Source: Eledone cirrhosa (lineage: Eukaryota). From it: DNA of 64,000 bases. Shown here one piece after another: positions 1-64,000 of the stretch. Within the stretch, counting starts at the first letter, position 1. Each line of letters starts with the position of its first letter. The position numbers were made by a program, and so were the translations under genes. The stretch is from positions 310,992,001-311,056,000 of the forward strand of contig OZ024742.1 of NCBI GenBank assembly GCA_964016885.1, given 5' to 3'. The notes under the pieces were generated by a model. That model saw nothing but the letters and a program-made list of their open reading frames with translations. It was not told the origin of the DNA and did not search any database.

Positions 1-1091
1 ATGGGTAGAAGAACACAAAAAATAAAAATCCACACCATCCTGCCGATTATGGACATACGGTGGGTTTTTACAGGTTTCCTGGACCTGGATGATGACACGC
101 TGGTGTCCATGGGAAAGGCATCGGGTGACGCGTTCAGTGGAACGATCCTCGAACTTGTAGTTCAAATGAGGCCCGAAAGGATCGCCCAGATCCCTGAACG
201 CGTCATACTGGATGATCAAACTTTCATCAACATTACCGTTGAGGGTAGGCGGCCCTCGTGTTACCTCTGCGGAACCAGGGGTCACCTGAGCGCTGTCTGT
301 CCCCAACTTAATAAGAAAACCCCAATCCTGCCTACACCACCAACAACTGCACAACCAACACAATCACCACAACTACCACTACAAAAACAACCACCACAGC
401 TCAAACCAAAACAAAACAATGTCCAACCCATCCCCCCCACTCTAAAAACAAAAACAATTTCCAAAACCCCCGCACCGCAAACACAACCCGAAAATATACC
501 CCTCCCCTCCAACGCGGAAGATGACCCTAGTTCGTCGTCGGACGAGGAGGAGCACTTCCACACAATCAAAAAAAAAAAAAGAAAACACACCTCAGACACA
601 CAAATGAAAACAACCCCTCCCCAAAACATAACACTGACACCAACACAAAAGAGCTCACAACAACAGCAAACAAAAAACACCACACAAAAACAAAAACATG
701 CATACACATACATAAACACAAGAAACAAAAAACTGTTAAACATTGTGTACAACAACAATCTAATAAAAACCCAAGGGCCTAACTTCACCCAGGCAGGGGA
801 TTTCCCCCACCTCAAAATGATTAAGGCCCCACAGGACACCTATAAAACTTTAAAAAACAACTTTAAAGAGGACGTGGGTCCCCCCCCCCCCCCCCTGCGT
901 CGGGCCCATTAACCGCGTCCTCCTAAAAAAACTACCCCACCCCCTCCCCAAACACCCACACAACTCCAAACTCCCCAACCACACAACACACTGATGCCCC
1001 TACACTTCCACAAACCACCACCCCACCCAACAACCCATCCCCCACCCTAATGGAAATTGTGCAGCCCGATACCCGGGACGCAGAGAGGTAA
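1..1091 (+). pseudogene. Tx1 ORF1 (gag-like CX2CX4HX4C protein), copy A, frameshift in poly-C at ~880-896
   Basis: CYLCGTRGHLSAVC; after the C-run the shifted frame reads PCVGPINRVLLKNYP...DTRDAER* (homologous to PCLKPLNRVLLKDFP in copy B) and ends at TAA 1089-1091. Confidence 0.85.
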
Positions 1092-1093
1092 GT
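1088..1093 (+). promoter_or_regulatory. Putative 5' splice donor overlapping ORF1 stop (copy A)
   Basis: GAG|GTAAGT, perfect intronic U1 consensus; the TAA is the ORF1 stop. Confidence 0.6.
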
Positions 1094-1115
1094 GCCTTTT
1101 CTCTTAACCACCAAC

Positions 1116-4100
1116 ATGGCTATGCTAAGAGTAGGCTGTTTAAATTCGCGTGGCCTGGGCTCAACTTGGAAGCAAGCAATGCTTCTAAATGACCTCAGGT
1201 CACAACGTATAGATGTGATGGTTATTTGCGAGGCCCGGATCAGCAACGTGCGACAGCTGGCCCCCACCTTTGATGACTTTGAGATGCACGCATCTCTCTG
1301 TCAGCCCGGAGGTGGGGGTGGGGTTGTCGTTCTGCTGCAAAAACATCTGGGTCTCGCAACACAGATGGTACATTTGGGCCCGGAGGGTCGACTAGTGGTT
1401 CTGGACCTTGGCAGTGGTAAAGGCGGAGCGTTTAGGTTGGGAGCTGTCTACGGCCCTTTCGGGTCAATGCGGCCGGACTTCTTCCATCGTCTGGAGACTT
1501 TTCTAGGGACGTTCCGCTCCTTGCTATTAGTGGGGGACTGGAATGGTATCCTAGATGCACGCTGGGACTACGTAGGGGCCTGTCCCGATAGAGAGGGGAT
1601 AGAAAGGGTTAATCGGTCGATTTGACCTGGCCGATAGATATCGACTAGATTTTCCGACTGCGCCAACCTGGACTTGGGCAAATCGTAGCGGATCATCTAG
1701 GTCGTACCTAGATAGGTTCTTAGTTAGAATTAAGGATAAGGACTTTTTAAGTTGTCCAAAAATGCGCATGGTTGGCTATTCAGACCACAAATTAGTGACC
1801 TGCATGGTCAACCTTGACAGAACTCATAGACAGGGACCCGGTTACTGGAAGCTCAACTTGTCCTTACCTGCAAGTAAGGCTTACAGGGACCGGATTAGCA
1901 CTTTAGTTAAGGAGCGGTTGACGGGCGCCATCGTCAACAGCAGGTGGTGGGGATCTCTCAAAAGAGAGATTAGAGTAGTCTCTATAGAATTTAGTAAGGA
2001 GTTAGCCTCAAATAGAAATAGGAAGGAAAGGGAGTTGGTAGATAGTGTAGAAGAGGCAATTAGAAGCGGCGACGTGGCCAGAGTGCTAGCGTCGAGAACG
2101 GCCCTGGGCCAGTTCTTCGACGCGAAACACGAAGGCTGCATCGTCCGAAGCAATATACGTGCTCTGGGAAACGAGGGGACCAAAGCTGTTAGCTGGGCCC
2201 GCGTGACAGAAGCCAAAAGAGGGAGCAGATCCACTATCCGGTCTTTGCGAGACCAGAATGGACGGGTGATCCTTGAACCTAAGCAGATGTGCGAAGCTTT
2301 TCAAAAGCACTTTGCCGGATTGTTCGGAAGGGGCGGGGAGCCGGATGGGGATGTGGACTTCGGTCCATACCTCGACGGCCTGCCGCGTCTCTCGGACAGG
2401 GAGGCGAAGTCCTGCGAGGAGCCGATTTCAGCCGCTGAGATAGAGGACGTGCTGAGCCAATGCGGCAAACGCAAATCCCCGGGTCTCGATGGTCTTCCAT
2501 ACGAACTATATCTAGCTATGCCGGACTTGTTCCCCTATCTCCTTGAGGCTGTCTACTGCAACTGGCGACAGAACGGGAGAATTCCCTGTGCTGTGACCAA
2601 GGGCGTAGTCACGCTAGTGAGGAAGGACGAGAACAAGGGGGACGATATAAATAATTTCAGGCCCATAACTCTGCTAAATACAGAGTTACAGATTTTGGCC
2701 AAGGTGCTAGCAAAGAGGTTGGCGCATGTCGTGGGCAACCTGGTGGGAGGTGCGCAGACATGTGCTATCCCGTCCAGGTCTATCCACGACAACCTCCACC
2801 TCATGCGATACATCATAGAGAGGGTTGGGAACGAACCCGGCTTTGGTGGGGCCCTGATCAACTTGGATCAATCTAAGGCATTCGATAGGGTCGACCATGG
2901 TTACCTGGATGCGGTGCTAGCGGCGGCAGGCTTCGGACCCGTTTTCAGGGGTTGGATCAATGCCATGCACAGCAGCCGCATCTGCTCTAGGGTCAAGATG
3001 AACGGCTACCTCTCGGAGCCGTTCGAAATCGCGCGGTCCATCCGACAGGGGTGCCCTCTCTCCTCCCTTCTGTATGTAGTGACTCTAGAGCCACTGCTGC
3101 GGAAGTTGGAGTTGTTGCAGGGCATCCCGTTGGAACCGGGATTGCGGAAAGCGGTGTCAGCCTACGCCGATAACGTAACAGTAATGGTGTCGACGGCCTC
3201 GGAAATCGGGGTGATCGGCACCTTACTGGAGGAGTACGAAAGGTTTACAGGGGCTAAGCTGAACCGGGACAAGTCGATCGGTCTGCAACTCGGCACGTGG
3301 AGGGGCAGATCGATGCCCTCCGATGGCGTCGTCGGGCGCTGGACGGAGGGCCCGGTGAACTTGCTCGGGGTCTGGTTCGGACCAGACCTCCAGGTGGAGA
3401 AGAACTGGGGTAAGGTAACGAACAGGGTGTTTGCACTGACCCAGAAGTGGGCCGAGTGCAAACTGTCCCTGAAAGGTCGGGCGGAGGTGGCGAACACTTA
3501 TATAGCGTCCGTCATCTACTACCGCCTGACCGTTGTGCCTTGCCCAAGGGAAACGCTCGCCAAAATGGAGCGCGCACTCTTCCAATTCCTTTGGAAGAAG
3601 CGGGCTCCTATGGTGAGGAGATCCATCTGTTGTCAACACCCTTCGAAAGGAGGGCTGGGGATGCCGTGGCTAATGATACGTAAACACGCATTAAGGCTAC
3701 GGCACCTTCAGATATTCCTCTCCGGTCAACCGGTGTGGGCCCCGTTTGTGAGGCGAGCCTTTCCCAGACTCGTCTCACTCACCGAGCTGCAATCCTAGGT
3801 CAAGCAGAGACCGAGAAAACTGGGCGCCGAGTGTGCCCAGGCACTCACGGCTCTCTGGCAGGCGAACCCGGCTGTCAGTGGAGAATCCACCTCGTCATTC
3901 TATAGAGGGCTGGTGGTTAGCAGGTGCGACGACGCCCTAGGAGAAGCCCTAGGCATGGAGGAAGACGAACTGGCCAACCTGTTCGGTAGGACATTCAGCC
4001 CGGGACCCATGGATAACTTCCAGAGGTCCCTGGCCTGGCAATGCTACAGAAGGGCTCTGCCCGTTCGAGAAAGGCTCTACAGACACGGGCGCCCGGGTAG

Positions 4101-4536
4101 GGACCCCTCGAAAAAGATCTGTCCCAGATGCGTGTGCGACGAGGAAACCGTTGCACACGCATTGGTACACTGCTCGGGCATTGCCGATCTGTGGGGCTAT
4201 GTCGAACAACTGCTGTCAAGGGTGGGACCGATCCGGTTGACCACCGAGTCTATTGTAACGGTAAAGCCGCCTCCCCTCTTCAAAAACGAAGAAGAGGCGG
4301 TGCTTCTGTGCGTAATAGCCATGGCGAAAGAGGTTGTATGGTGGACGCGTCTGAAAGGACTGAGGTCAGACACCTTTCTCTCTGGCCAACAACTGGTCCG
4401 TTTCTTCCGATATCATTTCGGAAGAAAGATCAGGATGGAGAGAGAGGTGCTGCACCCCAGCCGTTTTTATGAAAGATGGGTGAAAGTGGCGAGAATGGCC
4501 CGTGTGAATGGGCCTTCACTCTACATCAGACTATAG
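1116..4536 (+). pseudogene. Tx1 ORF2 (AP endonuclease, reverse transcriptase, C-terminal zinc finger), copy A, inactivated
   Basis: ATG 1116; GDWN and SDH APE motifs; SPGLDG, RPITLL, KAFDRV, RQGCPLS; YADD is YADN; frameshift ~1590-1620; TGG>TAG at 3796-3798; CPRC..H..C near end. Confidence 0.92.
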
Positions 4537-4540
4537 GTGA
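4513..4540 (+). promoter_or_regulatory. Putative 3' splice acceptor coinciding with ORF2 stop (copy A)
   Basis: ccttcactctacatcagactaTAG|GTGA followed by purine-rich GGAAGATGAAAG. Confidence 0.45.
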
Positions 4541-4810
4541 GGAAGATGAAAGACCAAGGGAGCACCCCTTCTCTGTGCTCCTGAGGAAAAGGGTTGCACA
4601 CTTTTTTCGGGGGTGTGTGCGACCCCCCAAGGCGCCTCCTCTCTATTGAGGACTTTGTTATAAATTTTATTTTTTGTTATATTTTATTTTATTTTTATAT
4701 ATTGTTATTGCCTCCTCCTTATTGAGAACGCCTTGTTTTGTAAACTCCCCCCATTGTACTTGTCCCACTTTTGATGCCCTGGTGGCAAATAAAAGAAACA
4801 TATCTATCTA

Positions 4811-5197
4811 TAACTGATTCTTTTTTTCAAATACCACTTTGGAAGAAGAATCAGGATGGAGAGAGAGGTGCTGTACCCCAGCAAGTTTTATGAAAGGTGG
4901 GTGAAAGTGGCGAGAATGGCCCGAGTGAATGGGCCTTCTCTCTATATCAGCCTGTAGGTTGAGGAAAAGGAGGAGGAGAGGAAAGGAGTACAAACTCTTC
5001 GTACTCCTGGAGATGAGGGTTGCACATTTTTTTTCGGGGGTATGTGTTACCCATATAAACTGTCTCCCTCTATTGGCGAAAATCGACTAACTTTTTTAAA
5101 TTCCATTTGTGATAACATTTTACACGTTTTTATTGTATGTAAACTTCCCCCTTTGTATTTGTCCCCTTCTTTTGTGCCCCTGTAGCTAATAAAGAAA
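4811..5197 (+). mobile_element. 5'-truncated Tx1 copy (ORF2 C-terminus plus 3' UTR)
   Basis: Encodes ...RIRMEREVLYPSKFYERWVKVARMARVNGPSLYISL*; AATAAA 5188-5193; TATC repeats on both sides. Confidence 0.9.
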
Positions 5198-5487
5198 TAT
5201 ATCTATCTATCTATCTTGATAGAGTGAGACACGCTTCACATCGGCTCCGCTATTCTATCGGAATTTACCCTTACTATAGTAAGTACCAGTGAATTTTTTC
5301 AGTGCAACACATTTGGAACACTTACCCCTGTTATTTAGGGAAACATTTTTACATTTTAGGGGGTAAAATAAATAACTATTTTTCTGTAAAACTTCTTTCT
5401 TGGCAGCATGGCGGAAAAGATGGCAGATATGTCTGCCATTAGCTCTGCCACGCCCCCCCCCCCCCCCCCAAGTCTGAAGAACAAAAA

Positions 5488-7221
5488 ATGGATACAACAA
5501 AACTAGACAACGAAACAAACAAGGAAAATGAAAAAACAAATGTTACGGAAAATGAGCAAACGGAAAACAAACAAACAGAAAATAAGAATACAAATAACAA
5601 CAAGGCAACTTTCGCCCAGAAAACAATAATATATACACCTATAGACTTAACTGCCGCCAGAGAAAAACTGGCAGAAGCAAAAAAACACATAGTCTTGGGG
5701 GAGAACGGAATGTTTTCCATTAATTCCCCCCCAGAATTCAAGAAAGCGAGAATAGAAAGCACTGTTCTCTTCAGAACAATCCTAAACCAAACGAGAAAGC
5801 CAGCACAGCCCAGCCAAATGGAGATTGAGTTGGTCCTAAAAGACTATATGAAGAATATTCTCTTCATACGAAAGGACCGACTCTATGGCAGCATTTCGGT
5901 CTTAACAAAAGACAGGGAAACAGCGCAGAGGCTTTCCCTAAGCCCACTCTCATCAACAACATACAGCTTCTATCCCTCCTACATGGGTAGAAGAACACAG
6001 AGAGTCAAAATACAAACAATGCTGCCCACAATGGACTTCTGGTGTGCTATTGCTGGCTTCATAGACATGGGCGAGGACACAGTGCTGTCAATGGGGAAGG
6101 CATCTGGAGATGCGTTCCTGGGAATGGGCCTCGACCTACTAGTCCAAATGATGCCCGAAAGAATAGCGCGAATCCCGGATCGCATCTGGCTGGATGACCT
6201 CACCCCAATATATATAATTGTAGAGGGGAGAAGACCAGCATGTTATTCATGCACGGAAAGGGGACACGTTAAGGCTAACTGCCCGAATCGTATCCCCCAA
6301 AAAGGACTATTGCCCACACCCACCACAAACAGTACACCAACACCACCCACCTCCAAAAATACACTAATACCACACACAGCAAACAAAATACAGACACCAC
6401 CAACCACAAGCACAACACAAACATCACCACCACCAGCACCAAACACAAGCACGACACAAAAATCACCACCACCATCACCAACCACAACACAAACATCACC
6501 ACCACCATCACCAACCACAAGCACGACACAAACATCACCACCACCACCACAAAACGCATTCCAAACAAATAATAAAAAAAAAACATCAACAAATCTACCC
6601 CTCCCGCAAAAAAAAAACAACCAGACACCACGTCCCTCCCACCTAGCGCTGAAGAGTTTCCCCCAACTTCTGAAGAAGAAGGAGGAGAAGCCTTCAGACA
6701 AGTTAAAAGAAAAAAAAGAAAGCACACACCCAGCACACCACAAATAACCCACACACAAACACCAACTCCAATCAGCCTCGACAAACAAAAATAAATCTGC
6801 GCCTCCCCTCTTCGAAACATTGACAGCATCACAAAAAAAGACTTTACAATACACATATATAAATAAAGAAAATAAAAAACTGTTTAAATTAATAAACAAT
6901 AGCCCTTTGGTGCAGACCGAAGGGCCAAACTTTATCTCAACAGAGAACTTCACCCATTTAAAAATGATAAAGGTCCCTCTGGACCTTTATCGTTCCTTAA
7001 AAGAACAATTTATACAGGACGTGAGCCCCCCCCCCCCCCCCCCCCCCTGTTTAAAACCGTTAAATCGCGTCCTCTTGAAAGATTTCCCCATAACCTCCCC
7101 TCTCCCTGACACAACTCCAAATACCCCAACCCCACCACACTCGGATACCCCACACCACCACAAAACATCCCTCCACCCAACACACCCGACGCCATGGAAA
7201 TTACACAACCCGGAGAGGTAG
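5488..7221 (+). pseudogene. Tx1 ORF1, copy B, frameshift in the A-rich low-complexity region ~6570-6620
   Basis: ORFs 5488-6747 and 6820-7221; CYSCTERGHVKANC knuckle; C-terminal block homologous to copy A; ends PER* TAG 7219-7221. Confidence 0.88.
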
Positions 7222-7223
7222 GT
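7218..7223 (+). promoter_or_regulatory. Putative 5' splice donor overlapping ORF1 stop (copy B)
   Basis: GAG|GTAGGT; the TAG is the ORF1 stop. Confidence 0.55.
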
Positions 7224-7252
7224 GCTTTTCTTTCTTCACTTTCAACACCAAA

Positions 7253-10200
7253 ATAGATCAATTGAGAGTTGGCTGTTTGAATGCGCGTGGCCTGGGCTCA
7301 GCTTGGAAGCAAGCAAAGCTTCTAAGTGACCTCAGGTCACGAAGTATAGATGTGATGGTTGTTTGCGAGAGTCGGATCAGCAGCGTGCGTCAGCTGGCTC
7401 CCGCCTTCGATGACTTTGAGATGCACGCATCTCTCTGTCAACCCGGAGGCGGGGGTGGGGTTGCCGTACTGCTGGATAAACGTCTGGCTCTCGACGTACA
7501 GATTGTTCACTCGGACCCGGGGGGTCGATTACTGGTGCTGGACGTCGAAGGCGGTGAAGGCGGGGCTTTCAGACTGGTCGGTCTTTATGCCCCCTTCGGG
7601 GCTGAAAGAGCCGACTTCTTCCAGCGTCTGGAGACTTTTCTAGGAACGTCGCGTTCCCTGCTTTTAGTGGGGGACTGGAATGAAATCCTAGATGCGCGTT
7701 GGGACTATGCAGGGGCATGTCCAGATAGAGGGGGGTGTAGCAGCCTCAAGGGGTTACTCGATCGATTCGACCTGGTCGATAGATTTCGACTAGATTTTCC
7801 AACTGTGCCAACCTGGACCTGGGCAAACCGCAGTGGTCAATCTAGATCGTACCTAGATAGGTTTTTGGTTAGGAGTAAGGATAGGGACGTATTTAGTTGT
7901 CCAGAATTGCTCATGGTTGGCTATTCAGATCACAAATTAGTGACCTGCGTGGTCAACCTTGATAGAACGCATAGACAGGGTCCCGGTTACTGGAAGATGA
8001 ACTTGTCCTTGCCGGCAAAGGAAGCTTACAGGAACCGGATCAGTAGCTTAGTTAAGATGCGGTTGACGGGAGCGATCGTCAACAGCAGGTGGTGGGTATC
8101 TCTAAAGAGAGAGATTAGAGTAAGTTCGATAGGTTACAGTAAGGAACTAGCGGCGAATAGAAATAGGAGGGAAAGGGAGTTAACAGATAAACTAGAAGAG
8201 GCGATTAGGAGCGGAGACGTGGCCAGAGTGTTAGCGGCGAGAACGGCGTTGAGCCAGTTCTTTGACGCGAAGCACGAAGGCTGCGTTGTCCGAAGTAAAA
8301 TATGTGCTTTAGGAAACGAGGGGACCAAAGCTGTTAGTTGGGCCCGCGTGACAGAAGCCAAGAGTGGGATTAAATCCACCATTCGGTCTTTGCGAGACCA
8401 GGATGGACGGGTGATCCTTGAACCTGAGCGGATGTGCGAGGCCTTTCAAAGGCACTTTGCTCGACTGTTCGGAGGGGGTGGGGGGGCCGGACGGGGATGT
8501 GGACTTCGGTCCATACCTCGACGGTCTACCGCGTCTTTCGAGCGGCGAAGCGCAGTGCTGCGAAAGGCCAATCACAGCCACTGAAATCGGGGAAGCGCTC
8601 AGCCAATGCAGCAGACGCAAATCTCCGGGTCTCGATGGTCTACCATACGAACTTTATTTAGCTATACCGGTCTTGTTCTCCGAACTCCTCGAGGCTGTCT
8701 ATTGCAACTGGCAACAGAACGGGAGAATTCCCTGTTCTGTGACCAAGGGCGTAGTCACGCTAGTGAGGAAGGACGAGAGCAAGGGGGACGACTTAAGTAA
8801 CTTTAGGCCCATAACTCTGCTGAATGCAGAGTTACAGATTTTGGCCAAGGTGTTGGCGAATAGGTTGGTGCTTGTGGTGGGTGGTTTGGTGGGAGACGCG
8901 CAGACATGCGCTATCCCGTCCAGGTCTATTCACGACAACCTCCACCTCATGCGATACATCGTAGAGAGGGTTGGGAACGAACCCGGCTTTGGTGGGGCCC
9001 TGATCAACTTGGATCAATCTAAGGCGTTCGATAGGGTCGACCATGGTTACCGGGATGCGGTGCTAGCGGCGGCGGGCTTCGGACCCGTTTTCAGGGGCTG
9101 GATTTCTGCCATGCACAGTGGCAACGTCTGCTCTAGGATTAAAGTAAACGGCTACCTCTCGGAGCCGTTTCAAATCACCCGGTCCATCAGGCAGGGGTGC
9201 TCCCTCTCCTCCCTTCTCAACGTATTGACTCTCGAGCCACTGCTGCGGAAGTTGGAGTTGCTGCGGGGCATACCCCTGGAACCGGGATTGCACAAAGCGG
9301 TCTCGGCCTATGCCGACGACGTAACAGTAATGGTGGCGGACGCCTCGGAAATCGGGGCGATCGTCACCCTACTGGAGGAATACGAAAGGCTGACGGGGGC
9401 TAGGCTGAACCGGGACAAGTCAGTCGGTTTGCAACTCGGAACGTGGAGGGACAAACCGATGCCGTTAGACGGTATCGTCGGGCGTTGGACGGAGGGCCCG
9501 GTGAAGCTGCTCGGGGTCTGGTTCGGATCGGACCTCCAGGTGGAGAAGAATTGGGGCGAAGTGACGAGCAGGGTGTTTGCGCTGACCCAGAAGTGGGCCA
9601 AGTGCAAACTATCACTGAAAGGTCGGGAGGAGGTGACGAACGCTTACATAGCGTCCGTCATCTACTACCGCCTGACCGTCGTGCCTTGCCCCAAGGAAAC
9701 GCTCACCATCATGGAGCGCATGCTCTTCCAGTTCCTCTGGAAGAAGCGGCCTCCCATGGTGAGGAGATCCATCTGCCAGCACCCTTCGAAAGGAGGGCTG
9801 GGTATGCCGTGGCTGTTGATTCGTAGGCACGCATTGAGGCTACGGCATCTACAGGTATTCCTCACCGGTCAGCCGGTGTGGGCCCCGTTTGTGAGGCGAG
9901 CCTTCCCACAGCTCGTCTCGCTCACCGAGCTGCAATCCTGGGTGAAGCAAAGACCGAGAAAACTGGGCAACTGGCACACCGAGTGTGCCCAGGCGCTCAC
10001 GGCTCTCTGGCAAGCGGACCCGACTATCAGTGGAGAATCCACCTCGACATTCTATAGAGGGCTGGTGGCTAGCAGGGGCGACGACACCCTTGGAGAGTCG
10101 CTAGGCATGGAGGAGGACGAACTGGCCAGCCTGTTCGGTAGAACTTTCGGCCCGGGACCCATGGACAACTTCCAGAGGTCCCTAGCCTGGCAGTGCTACC

Positions 10201-10688
10201 GGGGGGCTCTGCCCGTTCGAGAAAAGCTCTACAGACACGGGCGCCCGGGCAGGGATCCCGCGAAAAAGATCTGTCCCAGATGCGTGCGCGACGAGGAAAC
10301 CGTTGCGCATGCACTGGTACACTGCCCGGGCGTTGCCGATCTGTGGGGCTACGTCGAACGACTGCTGTCGCGTGTGGCGCCGATTCGATTTACCGCCGAG
10401 TCTGTGGTGAACATCAAGCCGCCTCCTCCCTTCAAAAATGAAGCAGAGGTGGTCTTTCTGTGCGTAATAGCCATGATGAAAGAGGTTGTGTGGTGGACGC
10501 GCCTGAAAGGTCTGAGGTCGGGTGACTTTCTCTCCGGCCAACACCTGGTGTACTTCTTCCGATACCACTTCGGAAGAAGGATCAGGATGGAGAGAGAAGT
10601 GCTTGGCCCCAGACAGTTTTATGAAAGGTGGGTGAAAGAAGCGAGAATGGCTCGTGTAAATGGGCCTTCTCTCTACATTGTTCTGTAG
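7253..10688 (+). pseudogene. Tx1 ORF2 (APE-RT-ZnF), copy B, one frameshift in G-run ~8475-8487, start codon ATA
   Basis: ORFs 7262-8584 and 8418-10688; YADD intact; ATA at 7253 aligns with the ATG of copies A and C. Confidence 0.92.
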
Positions 10689-10692
10689 GTGA
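10665..10692 (+). promoter_or_regulatory. Putative 3' splice acceptor coinciding with ORF2 stop (copy B)
   Basis: ccttctctctacattgttctgTAG|GTGAAGAAG: strong pyrimidine tract, then GAAGAA-type purine-rich sequence. Confidence 0.55.
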
Positions 10693-10893
10693 AGAAGTGA
10701 AGAGGAAAGGGGGAGCGCCTCCTCTCTGGGCTTCCCCCGCGAAAAGAGTTGCACACTTTTCGGGGGTATATTATTATTATATTTTATTATTATATTATTC
10801 TTATTGTTATGCCTTTTTCTTTACTCGCATTTATGTAAACTCCCCCCTGTGTATTTGTCCCTTTCTCTTGTGCCCTAGTGGCAAATAAAGAAA

Positions 10894-11020
10894 TATATCT
10901 ATCTATTTATCTACCTATGTATCTATCTGTCTGTCTGTCTGTCTATTTATCTATCCATTTGTCTGCCTAGCTATATAACCACCTGTTTATCGGTCTTCTT
11001 ATCTATCTATCTATCTATAT
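10894..11020 (+). repeat. Degenerate (TATC)n/(TGTC)n microsatellite
   Basis: tatctatctatttatctacc...ctgtctgtct...atctatctat. Confidence 0.85.
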
Positions 11021-11059: not shown

Positions 11060-14577
<3,518 letters not shown>

Positions 14578-59509: not shown

Positions 59510-59758
59510 TTTCTTTATTAACCACAAGGGTTTACATAAAGTAGACATTAAGGACAGTGCAGGACAATACAGGACGGTACAAATGGGCATTTCTGCGTGT
59601 AAAAAACAAAAACAGAGGATGTAACAAAAAAATAACAATGAAAAATTCCCCAATAGAGGGGAGACTTCGGAGGGACATTTGTGGAGAAAGCCCAGTAAAA
59701 GGCCACAGTGACCCTGACCACCAAGGCAAGTGCCCTCTCCCAGTTTTCCACCTTTAAT

Positions 59759-62700
59759 TTACAGATATATACTCAGAGTAGGCCCATTCACTCAGGCCAT
59801 TCTTGCTTCTCTCACCCATCTTTCAACAAAATGCTGGGAAGAGAGCACTTCCCTCTCTACCCTGATTTTCCTTTTCAAATGAAATTTGAAAAAGTCAATC
59901 AGGGCATCACCGAAGAGGTAAGTGCTCGTCTTCAGCCCTTTCAAACGTGTCCACCATACTATCTCTTTCGCCATGGCCACCAGACAGATAAAAATTGCCT
60001 TCCCTTCCCGGCTAAAGGAGGAGGGCGGGGCAATCCTCACGATGGACCCAGATGATAGCCGGATCCGTCCTACACGCGACAGCAGGTGTTCGACATAAAC
60101 CCACAAGTCAGCAATTTTCGGACACTGGACGAGTGCGTGCAGGACGGTTTCGTCGCCCTGCGCGCATCTCGGACATGCCCGGCTGACGGCACCTCCATGC
60201 CTGTAGAGTTTATCCCGAACTAGCAAGGCTCCTCGGTAGCACTGCCAGGCCAGAGATTTCTGGAAGTTGTCCATAGGCCCCGACCCGAAAGTTCTTCCGA
60301 AGAGATTGGCTAGTTGATTTTCGTCGACGCCTAGAGTTTCCCCAAGTACGTCGTCGCTCTTCCCCTCCACTAATCCTTTATAGAACGCCGAGGTGGAGTT
60401 TCCACCGATCACATTGCCCGATTGGTCGAGGGCTGTGAGCGCCTGAAGATATTCCAGTCTCCAGGCGCTCCCTCTCGGTCTTCGCTTGACCCAGGACTGC
60501 AGCTCCGTCAAGGAAACGAGCTGGGGAAATACGTGTCTAGCAAACGGCGACCACACCTGATCACCGTCGAGGAAGAGGTGGAGATGTCGTAGCCTGAGCG
60601 CGTGCCTGCGCATCATCAGCCACGGCATGCCCAGCTCTCCACGTAGCGGGTGTTGACAACAGATGGACCGCCTGACCATCGGAGCGAGTCCCTTCCACAA
60701 AAAACGAAAGAGCAAACGCTCCAGCGCAGTCAGGCGAGGCTTAGGACAAGGTACGACGGTCAGGCGGTAGCAGATGACAGACGCGATGTACGCGTTAGCC
60801 ACCTCCGCTCGACCTTTCAGGGATAGCTTCCTCTCCGCCCATTTCTGGGTGAGAGAAGCCACCCTGCTCGTCACCTCGTCCCAGTTTTTGTCCGTCTGGA
60901 GGTCCGGACCGAACCAGACCCCTAGCAATTTAACCGGTCCGTCCGTCCAGCGTCCGACGACGCTGTTGGACGGCATGGACCTGCCTCTCCAGGTGCCGAG
61001 CTGCAGGCCCACTGACTTTTCCTGGTTGATCATGCTCCTGTCACCGCTTCGTATTCTCTTAGTGTAGTGCCGATCGCCTCGATGTGTTTGGCGTTGAACA
61101 CCACTACGGTGACATCGTCCGCATATGCTGACACGGATCTTCCGCATCCTAGTTCGCGCGGGACGCCCCTCAACGTCTCCAGTTTGTGCAGTAATGGCTC
61201 GAGAGTCAATACGTAGAAGAGGGACAAGAGGGGACATCCTTGGCGGACCGAGCGCATGATGTTGAACGGTTCCGAAAAGTGACCGTTCACTCTCACCACA
61301 GAGCAGATGTCGCTGTGCATGGCAGCGATCCAACCTCTGAAGACGGGCCCAAAGCCAGCCGCCCTCAGGACTGCCGCTAGGTAACGATGGTCGACCCTAT
61401 CGAAAGCTTTCGACTGATCTAAATTGATCAAAGACCCACCCGTGCCAGGTTCCCCAGCTACCCTCTCTACGATGTATCGCATGAGGTGGAGGTTGTCGTA
61501 GATGGATCTGTCGGGAATGGCGCATGTCTGCACCTCTCCCGCCAGACCACCAACGACAAGCGCCAACCTCTTTGCTAGCACTTTGGCCAAAATCTTGAAC
61601 TCTGTATTTAGCAGGGTTATGGGCCTGAAATTATCTATGTTATCCCCCTTGTTCGGATCCTTTCTCAGCAGTGCCACTGCTCCTCGGCTCACAGAGCTGG
61701 GAATTCTCCCATTCTGTTGCCAGTTGCAGTAGACGTCCGCCAAGAGGCCTCCGAACAAGTCTGGCATCTGTACGTAAAGTTCATAGGGCAGACCATCCAA
61801 ACCAGGCGATTTACCCCTTGTGCAGCCAGTCATTGCCTCCCGTACTTCAGCGGCTGTTATCGGCTTTTCGCAACACTCCGCCTCAGTGGTCGAGTTAGAC
61901 ACTAAAGTCCATCCCTCGACCCGGCCCGCCGCTGCCCCCGAGCAGCTGAGCGAAGTGTCGCTGAAAAGCTTCACACATTTGCCCGGGATCGAGTAGCATG
62001 CGCCCGTCGTGGTCCACCAAAGACCGGATCGTGGCTTTGTTGCCACGACGCGCCTCCGCCACTCGGGCCCATTGAACGGCTTTCGTCCCCTCGTGTCTGA
62101 GAGCACGCACTCTAGCTCTGACAACGCAACCTTCGTGCTTTGCATTGAAGAATTGGTCAAGGGCCAATTTCGCCGCAAGCACGTCGGTCGCGATGACTTT
62201 GCTAAGTGCCTCGTCTAATTTTCTAACTAGTTCACCCTCTGCTCTATTTTTCTCTATTGCTAAAGCCTTACTAAACCTAATGGATTCTATTATAATCGCT
62301 CTATTCAGAGCAAACCACCACTTGTTGTTGACGATGGCCCCCGTCAACGCCCGCTTAACTAGTTCGCTAATCCGGTCTCTGTAGGCCTTGCGCGCTGGTA
62401 AGGACGCGTTTAGCTTCCAGTAGCCGGGTCCTCGTCTATGAAGCCTATCTAAGTCAAGCACACAGATCACGAATTTGTGGTCCGTGTAGCTGACTATCTT
62501 GAATTGTGGACAGACTATGCTAGACATATCTATTTCCCTACAAAATACTCTATCTGGATATGATCTGGATGACCCTATGCGATTTGTCCAAGTCCACATT
62601 GGCACATTCGGGAAATCCAATCGGTACCTGTCAGACAGTTCAAAACGCCTGAGCAGGTTGGTGAGGCTCTTGCACCCTCCACCCCTATCCGCTAATCCCA

Positions 62701-63157
62701 CACAGTCCCAGCGTGCATCTAAGATCCCGTTCCAGTCGCCCACTAACACTAAAGAGCGGGACGTTCCAAGAAAGGTCTCCAGACGCCGGAAAAAATCAGG
62801 CCGCCCTGCTCCTGTCGGGGCATAGACGGCCACTAGCCTGAAAGCTTGCCCGTCTCCGTTGGTCACGTCCAGCACCACCAACTTACCCTCTGGGTCCAGG
62901 AAGATGGCCCGTATGGCGAGATCCAAACCTCTCCGAAAAAGCACAGCAACTCCTCCCCCCGATCCAGGACGGCTGGGAGATGCGTACACATCGTAGCTGC
63001 CGAAGATCGGTGCGAAGGCCCGTGCTTCGGAGATTCTGGTCTCGCTGATGGCCACTACATCTATGTTTAGTGACCTGAGGTCGTTGAGCAGGTGACCCTG
63101 CTTTCATGACGACCCCAAGCCACGCGCATTTATGCTGCCTATTCTGAGTGAGGTCAT
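59759..63157 (-). pseudogene. Tx1 ORF2, copy C (stops and frameshifts)
   Basis: ATG 63157; TGG>TGA ~63105; ORF pieces 61895-63055, 61030-62178 (YADD), 59792-61333; stop TAA 59761-59759. Confidence 0.92.
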
Positions 63158-63190
63158 GTTTAAAATGGAGTGGAAAAGATGGGAAAGACC

Positions 63191-63196
63191 ACTTAC
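63191..63196 (-). promoter_or_regulatory. Putative 5' splice donor overlapping ORF1 stop (copy C)
   Basis: ACG|GTAAGT; the TAA is the reconstructed ORF1 stop. Confidence 0.6.
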
Positions 63197-64000
63197 CGTA
63201 CTTTTCGTAGAGGAAGGATGGTTTCTCCATCCCTTTTCACATGATCGTCTGGTGAAGGGACCGTTGAATCGTCCCTTCGGCTGGTCGTCGGCTCTTCTAT
63301 GAGTATGTCCGAATATACTCTCCGGTTGAGAGTCCCTCCTAGGTCTCTGAAATCACCAACTGCGTTGGGAAATTTCGTTTTAATGTTTGTGTATTGTTTC
63401 TGTGCTATTTTTACCAGTCTTATTTCTGTGCTATTTTTACCAGTCTTATGTTCGTTGGCGTTTTGATTGGTGCTGGTATTATGTAGTCGTGCTGTGAAAT
63501 GTCTGTGTGTTCAATTATGTAAGTCATTAGTTTCTTGTGTGTATTTATTGCCGTGCATTTGTTTTTCTGGGGGTGGGGTGTGGTTCTGCTATTTTCTTGT
63601 CGTTGTTGCTGGGTGTGTGTGTTTTGTTGTTGTGTTTGCGATGTTGGTGCTTGTGATGGTGGTGTTGAAGGTGTTGTTGTTGTTGTTGTTGGCGGTGGGG
63701 TTGTCGCCGGTGGTGATGGTGGTGCTAGTGTGGGTGGTGATGGTGTTGGTGGTGTTGCTGCTGTGAGTCTCTTTGCAGTAGCCTTTACCCGTTTTTCATT
63801 TCTTTCCTCCCTTTTCGAAGGCGACGATGCGCTGCTTCTGCGTTTCTGCCTTCTTACGACCTTTTGCCATCCCTCTCCCACCTCACACTCCATGTCTGAT
63901 TCTGTGAGGTCGGGGAGGGGTACCAGCTCCACTCTTTCACTTGTCGTTGTTGGTGATGTTTGCAGTGGAGTCTCTGTTGCAGCTGCATTTGGTATTACTG
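63193..64000 (-). pseudogene. Tx1 ORF1 C-terminal part, copy C, broken by a 26-bp tandem duplication (63397-63448)
   Basis: Removing the duplication gives IRLVKIAQKQYTNIKTKFPNAVG...LPLRKVR*, homologous to LKMIKAPQDTYKTLKNNFKEDVG in copy A. Confidence 0.8.

Follow-up and report, generated by a model that had tools for sequence, protein, structure and literature searches.

In a 64,000-nt stretch of Eledone cirrhosa DNA (hereafter the window), the first reading frame (ORF1) of a LINE-type element ends inside a sequence resembling a 5' splice site. The stop codon forms part of the donor-like motif, and the second reading frame (ORF2) starts a short distance downstream. Here we ask what such a motif is doing at the junction of the two frames. 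The preliminary description attributed it to selection on the RNA and named three candidate functions, namely a splice donor, a U1 binding site protecting against premature polyadenylation, and a termination-reinitiation signal. Published sources are cited below by PMC number.

The window, its elements and their relatives

The window is microsatellite-rich animal DNA with three copies (A, B and C) of L1-group, Tx1-like elements and three 3' fragments (D, E and F). The main features are as follows (the arms are defined in the third section).

1 to ~4800, plus strand: copy A
~5220-10895, plus strand: copy B
64000 to ~59510, minus strand: copy C
4812..5200, plus strand: fragment D, a 5'-truncated 3' end with the right arm only
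19480..19797, minus strand: fragment F, a C-like 3' end with a partial right arm
63196..64000, minus strand: 3' part of C ORF1, truncated by the window edge and frameshifted by a 26-nt tandem duplication at 63449-63398
59759..63157, minus strand: C ORF2 (endonuclease and reverse transcriptase), with premature stops and frameshifts
59514..59519, minus strand: terminal AATAAA of C, next to an (ATT)n tract
4788 and 10884, plus strand: terminal AATAAA of A and B, respectively

Fragment E (window 15972-16216, plus strand) ends a few bases short of the ORF2 stop, within the right-arm region, and is followed by unrelated sequence. Copies A, B and C are all decayed. Their ORF2s are 69-85% identical, and the fourfold-site distance equals 0.76 between A and C and 0.85 between B and C.

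Pfam domains found in ORF2 were Exo_endo_phos (E 6e-12, in C) and RVT_1 (E 6e-23, in B); zf-RVT stayed under its cut-off. The ORF2 reverse transcriptase is nearer to L1 (LINE-1 ORF2p, E 3e-38) than to the R2 type (R2 proteins, E 6e-20 or weaker). ORF1 matched zf-CCHC with E 0.004, below the curated cut-off, and its Atlas look-alikes carry zf-CCHC. A separate ORF1 with a CCHC knuckle is a feature of the Tx1 clade and the L1 group. The closest named relatives of the window elements come from Argonauta hians (65%) and Acanthosepion pharaonis (51%), which by itself would point to an octopod-like host. Elements of the Tx1 clade of the L1 group resemble the window copies in having an APE endonuclease, a reverse transcriptase and two ORFs, and may share with them insertion beside simple repeats (PMC4640811); L1-Tx1 families are listed as recently active in Octopus vulgaris (PMC13282606).

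A, B and D end in (TATC)n-like tracts, and a short tract of this kind precedes E. C ends in (ATT)n, and F, in a trace of (ATT)n. The positions abutting the elements are 4800-4811, 5200-5219, 10895-11020 and 15960-15972 for the (TATC)n-like tracts and 59505-59460 for (ATT)n. In this small set of copies, the difference in tracts between A, B, D and E on the one hand and C on the other suggests that these may be microsatellite-targeted families. A, D and B are arranged head to tail. Rfam gave no matches within the window, and tblastn against plasmids gave none. One match was obtained for relatives of ORF1 and one for fused proteins of greater length, which is weak evidence on fusion. Two further sets of ORFs, at 12473-13987 (minus strand) and 43893-45408 (plus strand), look like a Penelope-type reverse transcriptase with a GIY-YIG endonuclease. 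A self-inverted match of 72% lies at 59838-59933, near the end of C ORF2.

A genome scan for relatives yielded 45 loci. Forty-two of them are tandem arrays of mostly intact elements on 16 contigs of the assembly CAXXMW01; 41 of these have 42-44% amino-acid identity over the query, and one is a broken copy. The array loci form two families, L001 and L002-L042 (the main array family), with about 49% DNA identity to the window copies, and lie well apart in a reverse transcriptase tree of unlabelled relatives. CAXXMW01 is a species-representative bacterial assembly, and its 16 contigs made of eukaryote-type retrotransposon arrays are likely host contamination. The other three loci (L043-L045) are similar strays in three other assemblies.

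Donor-like motifs in the non-coding stretches

The junctions and one 5'UTR of the window copies contain the following features (a slash marks the splice position of the donor-like sequence).

63191..63198, minus strand: CG/GTAAGT of C, containing the ORF1 stop TAA (63195-63193)
63158..63192, minus strand: C spacer, 35 nt, pyrimidine-rich, followed by the ORF2 ATG (63157-63155)
1086..1093, plus strand: AG/GTAAGT of A, containing the ORF1 stop TAA (1089-1091); ORF2 ATG at 1116
7216..7223, plus strand: AG/GTAGGT of B, containing the ORF1 stop TAG (7219-7221); the ORF2 start position 7253 reads ATA
5276..5410, plus strand: B 5'UTR, donor-like ATA/GTAAGT (GT at 5279) and an acceptor-like pyrimidine tract with CAG (ends at 5406); ORF1 ATG at 5408

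The C ORF1 does end in LPLRKVR encoded up to CG/GTAAGT, as read at 63198-63191 of the minus strand, and the donor-in-stop motif is common to A, B and C, as was the pyrimidine-rich spacer of 24-35 nt (24 nt in A, 31 in B and 35 in C). We also checked whether C ORF1 might end elsewhere. It ends here: no stop interrupts its final 68 codons, 42 of which, from the first onward, match the relative P0010 (E 0.001). The stop found further upstream, at 63420, is due to the 26-nt tandem duplication. The view that the ORF1 tail of C is unrelated was wrong, since C, A and outside relatives have a common C-terminal domain that reaches up to about 50 codons before the stop. The ends given for A (AER) and B (PER) are a mixed case. 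Both stops are present, but reaching the end of A requires two homopolymer frameshifts and the frame of B is indel-dependent, departing from A over the last ~25 codons via a 1-nt and a 14-nt gap.

Since A, B and C form one lineage (69-85% identical), the motif was inherited and has one origin rather than three independent ones. The probability that its five non-stop positions would be identical in all three copies is about 0.015, as estimated from the three-way identity at fourfold sites (141/327). With random ORF ends, composed of B ORF1 codons, a stop and bases of element composition, the score of A was reached in 0.14-0.22% and that of C in 1.4-2.1% of 200,000 draws. The sites match 7-8 of the 9 positions of the 5' splice site consensus. 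By a simple U1-complementarity score, based on this consensus and not on a trained model, the site comes first among 245 GT sites in A and among 259 in B, and shares third place among 237 in C.

Selection on the RNA was supported. What is conserved, however, is not Arg(NGG)-stop-GT, because in relatives the donor lies 1 nt after the stop or, in L001, is absent. In the main array family all 57 copies have an ORF1 that ends with Glu-TAA followed by G/GTAAGT, one of them with an additional A. An Arg at the ORF1 end was found in only 1 of 25 long-tailed relatives, with no enrichment (73 single-stretch matches were kept of 102, and many may be truncated). As judged from protein sequences alone, the ORF1 relatives P0011, P0014, P0032 and P0010 end with EGKS, QGK, KW and GKKWKQN; a donor read in other phases gives Gly-Lys-(Ser/stop) or Trp-stop.

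Donor-like sites are not confined to the ORF1 end. A second one is located at the ORF2 stop or 14 nt after it in 48 of 48 array copies, and in L002 and L032 this second donor reads Arg-TAA-GT. L001, having no donor at the ORF1 end, carries a perfect one 41 nt past the ORF2 stop. In L002, L003, L008 and L032 the ORF1-end and ORF2-end sites are the two best donors among 381-403 GT sites. Further, GTAAGT occurs 50-61 nt into the 5'UTR of B and of 5 of the 8 array units with a delimited 5'UTR. Given U1-type sites at three non-coding stretches, the donor-in-stop arrangement is one cheap way of placing such a site, and the U1 site is probably under selection. At 5276-5410 the B 5'UTR looks as if it contained an intron of 128 nt whose end is a single base ahead of the ORF1 ATG; the 5'UTR donors of array families are similar to that of B, some of them having no acceptor, and the 5'UTR donor of L008 has no YAG ahead of the ORF1 ATG.

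Of the three functions proposed initially, protection by U1 against premature polyadenylation would have no AATAAA to act on within ORF2, as none occurs in any of 7 ORF2s. AATAAA does occur in ORF1 (5 in B). Past the ORF2 stop, one conserved AATAAA lies at 437-458 nt in 4 of 4 array units, and a second conserved poly(A) signal position, at 692-729 nt (L001, L008, L020, L032). Both positions are downstream of the second donor, so that a U1-controlled choice of the 3' end is possible. A termination-reinitiation signal of the known type is not seen. TURBS of caliciviruses and influenza B include the UGGGA motif 1 about 40-90 nt upstream of the stop (PMC3542737), and UGGGA is absent within 100 nt upstream of the stop in all 6 junctions; control of ORF2 initiation is nevertheless the best reading, via the duplex described below. 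The splice donor matches the consensus, but no conserved acceptor and no spliced copy were found.

Predicted pairing between the two ends of ORF2

The junction formed by the ORF1 stop, the spacer and the ORF2 start is one arm of an imperfect inverted repeat of 60-80 nt. The partner arm, 3.4 kb downstream, consists of the ORF2 end and the 3'UTR start. The arms in the window copies are listed below.

63131..63215, minus strand: C left arm (ORF1 end, stop, spacer, first ORF2 codons); best-supported core ~63198-63137
59711..59788, minus strand: C right arm (final codons of ORF2, its stop TAA 59761-59759 and the initial ~48 nt of the 3'UTR)
1071..1143, plus strand: A left arm
4504..4587, plus strand: A right arm (ORF2 stop TAG 4534-4536)
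7208..7280, plus strand: B left arm
10656..10731, plus strand: B right arm (ORF2 stop TAG 10686-10688)

The left arm begins in the last codons of ORF1, includes the stop and the spacer and reaches about ORF2 codon 7-9, and the right arm of the window copies covers the last ~9 ORF2 codons, the stop and ~45 nt of the 3'UTR. When junction 20-mers were scanned along the ORF2 and 3'UTR of their own element, the best joint partner in A, B and C was the 3'UTR start. (A pairing noted by eye about 160 nt before the ORF2 stop came second to this site and was dropped.) The full-arm energies were −57.2 (A), −78.5 (B) and −65.4 kcal/mol (C), with z-scores of −5.3, −9.0 and −5.8, respectively; none of 2000 dinucleotide shuffles was as strong in any of the copies. 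The right arm was the best window of its own element among 472 (A), 559 (B) and 441 (C). In a coarse all-against-all grid the pair ranked first of 4095 in B and fell outside the top 6 in C (2701) and in L032 (3081); hence raw energy alone is insufficient to pick it out. The A left arm pairs better with the right arms of C (−73.9) and B (−61.1) than with its own.

The duplexes contain 7, 11 and 6 G-U pairs vs 0, 1 and 1 A-C mismatches in A, B and C, respectively (24 vs 2 in total), a count biased by the folding method, which favors G-U. The energy of the antisense duplex is a fairer test, and it was weaker than the sense one in 3 of 3 window copies. Together, these results point to the sense RNA. 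Of the 14 donor positions from +3 to +16, all are paired in B, 13 are in C and 8 are in A, and at four of them B and C differ on both sides of the pair. The pyrimidine-rich composition of the spacer is explained by its complementarity to the purine-rich start of the element's own 3'UTR.

In cofolding, the helix outcompeted local folding in 6 of 6 cases, and it was present in the fold of the whole 3.8-kb span of B. The duplex lowered the predicted accessibility of the ORF2 start region in 5 of 6 cofolds; the AUG of A was not masked. In the window copies the unpaired probability of the donor fell from 0.41-0.48 alone to 0.13-0.23 in the presence of the arm, i.e. the donor is buried, whereas in L008 and L032 the duplex did not affect its accessibility. 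Both arms are predicted to be able to form local hairpins, and the duplex may therefore be one of two states. The local hairpin of the right arm (4558-4581, ~4980-5005 and 10708-10737, plus strand) has a loop of pyrimidines that could pair with the run of purines preceding the ORF1 stop, and A and D, compared by eye, show a both-sided change in its stem. This predicted hairpin is possibly a nucleation site or an alternative state. The consensus fold of five 3'UTR starts gave just 8 weak pairs.

The array families provided an out-of-sample comparison. Eight representatives of the two families were subjected to a free scan, and in all 8 the best partner window started 64-102 nt ahead of the ORF2 stop. 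A window anchored on the ORF2 stop missed it in 7 of 8 (z from +0.2 to +2.3; L001 had z −2.9), since the ORF2s of the array families have longer C-termini. At the homologous site, anchored on a Gly codon, z-scores ranged from −3.6 to −6.0, with 0 of 500 shuffles as strong for each of the 8 representatives. Cognate pairs had energies from −52 to −79, and swapping arms across three lineages gave −24 to −39, which is the shuffle level. One ungapped register, with anchors three codons ahead of the endonuclease Asn and at the C-terminal Gly codon, gave pairs in 78 of 96 cells in 8 sequences, as compared with 31-46 of 96 when slid by 1-3 nt. These counts should be read with kinship in mind: 7 of the 8 out-of-sample representatives, and 4 of the 5 of those in the register test, are close kin. 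Most register columns contain two-sided changes, and one pair type is kept in only 2 of 12.

Four lineages agreed on the partner of the junction, while among 19 control windows there was no four-way agreement and one three-way. GC-rich windows elsewhere reach similar energies. Synonymous recoding weakened the duplex in 9 of 9 cases, modestly (z from −1.5 to −3.3). Among 8 haplotypes of the array family, 13 of 53 reference pairs vary: changes affect both sides in 2 and a single side in 5, and 7 are disrupted in part of the haplotypes. The antisense duplex of L001 and of L020 was about as strong as the sense one, and no such pairing was found in L045, the most distant locus testable (25% identity).

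The duplex is present in all three lineages and the ORF1-end donor, in two. The lineage with no such donor, L001, has a TAATG stop-start overlap; hence the duplex is tied to the stop/start junction and not to the donor. As the register is fixed on ORF2 codons, spacers range from an overlap to 35 nt, and the stop of ORF1 and the start of ORF2 are always spanned, the junction itself is the probable target of the duplex. On these computed folds and comparisons, we consider it very probable that the duplex is real and selected.

Possible roles of the duplex

Complementarity, fixed register and compensatory changes were computed; the function is what we infer from them. In the model that we favor, the element RNA would fold with ORF2 (3.4-3.5 kb) as the loop of one large imperfect hairpin, and the duplex would conceal the start region of ORF2 until its own outer part is melted by a ribosome that completes ORF1. 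ORF1 termination would thereby be coupled to ORF2 initiation, with reinitiation at a low rate and a low output of ORF2, and ORF2 translation would be tied to RNAs that retain an intact ORF2 end. The donor-like motif would be a second, overlapping signal at the only non-coding spot between the ORFs, where G-TAA-GT makes double use of the stop. During transcription this motif probably binds U1, with no obligatory splicing, and in the window lineage the U1 site would be masked once the 3' arm is transcribed. Translational gating may be the main job of the duplex, a reading to which we give nearly even confidence. More tentatively, one may propose that in Tx1-type LINEs across distant animal lineages a co-evolving duplex from ORF2 start to end is a conformational switch. 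It would license ORF2 on intact RNA only, shield the ORF1 stop from nonsense-mediated decay (NMD), mask the donor as an anti-U1 strand (in the window lineage, once the 3'UTR is made), and partly set the amino acids at both ends of ORF2p; this larger proposal is possible, and we would not call it probable.

The duplex could instead act mainly as an NMD shield, bringing the 3' end beside the ORF1 stop, which is followed by an effective 3'UTR of 3.7 kb, so that termination looks normal and the RNA survives. The predicted fold leaves 153-201 nt beyond the right arm, in place of 3665-3699 nt, between the region of the ORF1 stop and the terminal AATAAA. In human cells an engineered 26-nt fold-back located 28-50 nt past a premature stop suppresses NMD (PMC2689704), and the inner helix here lies at a similar distance from the ORF1 stop. 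There too, intramolecular pairing sets the 3' end beside a stop with a long 3'UTR; it was, however, an engineered reporter with an arm by the poly(A) signal, while the present duplex is natural, has both arms partly coding and covers a start codon. Against shielding as the main role, the register is fixed to ORF2 codons and neither to the ORF1 stop nor to the poly(A) signal, the terminal AATAAA of the array families still lies ~690-730 nt past the ORF2 stop, and the arm extends over the ORF2 start in every case, something for which a pure shield would have no need. We regard shielding as unlikely on its own; it is compatible with gating. Still less likely is a timing switch, in which U1 sites opening each non-coding stretch sustain polymerase II and block early polyadenylation until the duplex masks the ORF1-end site for polyadenylation and export. 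It would account for GTAAGT in the 5'UTR, at the end of ORF1 and at the ORF2 stop or past it, as well as for the AATAAA in ORF1 and downstream of ORF2 in array units, and a retained 5' splice site motif is known to block 3' processing and export (PMC4380460). But ORF2 is devoid of AATAAA, the duplex exists in the donor-less L001, and donor accessibility is unchanged in L008 and L032.

Real splicing would join the ORF1-end donor to an acceptor at or beyond the ORF2 stop and remove ORF2, yielding an ORF1-only mRNA, with the duplex looping out ORF2 and setting the spliced fraction. If the donor of A or B is joined to the AG within the ORF2 stop, the same Arg-stop end is restored, and the donor variants conform to the splice consensus (A or G at +3 or +4). 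By a crude acceptor score this AG ranks 1st of 375 in B but 47th of 299 in A; C ORF2 ends with TAA, and joining to the next AG adds ~67 codons. The ORF2 stop as a universal acceptor was accordingly rejected, as it holds in B, is weak in A and fails in C. Under the 50-nt rule of NMD, a splice junction at the stop would escape decay. In relatives, on the other hand, the ORF2 end has a donor and not an acceptor (48/48), the 5'UTR donor of L008 lacks the YAG already mentioned, and none of 57 ORF1 ends or 48 ORF2 ends in the arrays is a spliced copy (counting genomic copies that match the search motif). In the window copies, moreover, the donors are buried in the predicted duplex. Ty1/Copia elements produce a spliced gag-only RNA, and the likeness is that a splice signal lies near the end of the frame of a structural protein needed in excess; these, however, are LTR elements with demonstrated splicing and early termination (PMC5580714). 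On balance, splicing of this kind is quite unlikely. Also rejected was a tiny in-frame intron (42, 49 and 53 nt) fusing ORF1 and ORF2 at the Arg codon of L-R-[VI]-G. It is in frame in A, B and C, but its AG ranks 123/299, 344/375 and 36/317, respectively, the acceptors in A and B being poor, and it gives no fusion in the array family because the donor lies after the stop. Finally, chance pyrimidine/purine complementarity and a chance donor inherited from one ancestor, with no function, might be suspected, as the pairing was noticed post hoc, other GC-rich windows have similar energies and the window copies are decayed. The prediction, however, also held for two families outside the original sample, whose arm sequences are different while their register is the same, so that this explanation is largely refuted and highly improbable.

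Gating of ORF2 by the duplex has precedents in part. Translational coupling in SART1 was reportedly described by Kojima et al. in 2005. SART1 requires an RNA structure downstream of its UAAUG overlap (PMC5972666, PMC3894237). Like the present elements, it is a non-LTR element with the ORF2 start beside the ORF1 stop and an RNA structure, in our case a predicted one, over or just after the ORF2 start. The three window copies and the main array family lack its TAATG overlap, which L001 shares. SART1 differs in that its structure is described as lying downstream of the overlap, while the partner strand of our elements is found 3.4 kb from the junction and the window spacers are 24-35 nt. In barley yellow dwarf virus and tombusviruses, pairing over ~4 kb between the junction preceding the polymerase frame and the 3' region was proposed to control polymerase synthesis (PMC5009743). 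The long-distance pairing of such a junction with the 3' region is the point of likeness; the viral interactions are short loop-loop contacts driving frameshifting or readthrough, and ours is an imperfect helix of 60-80 nt. The fixed relation of frames seen in the viruses does not hold either, since spacers of 24, 31, 35 and 14 nt correspond to frames 0, +1, +2 and +2. By analogy, the duplex would work like both SART1 coupling and the plant-virus recoding interactions, being a member of neither. In the open literature, with most subscription papers and Repbase Reports outside its scope, we found no report of a long-range duplex or ORF-end donors in Tx1/L1 elements, nor of long-distance control of polymerase synthesis in a non-LTR retrotransposon; control of the latter kind is already known from plant RNA viruses.

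Translation of ORF2 from a two-frame LINE RNA has been called unresolved or only proposed (PMC3894237, PMC5972666). The helix bears on this question and on how such RNA escapes NMD, and, being conserved and having named base pairs, it makes both testable by mutants. In practical terms, recoding or tagging either end of ORF2 would break it.

Two minor observations concern single codons. The B ORF2 start at 7253-7255 (plus strand), ATA instead of ATG, lies inside the predicted duplex. It is probably a mutation; cephalopods edit RNA from A to I, and it is only an idea that editing of the ATA base would create a start codon. In L008 (4206-4221) and its kin, the ORF2 stop TAG is in the loop of a short perfect hairpin between the right arm and the second donor.
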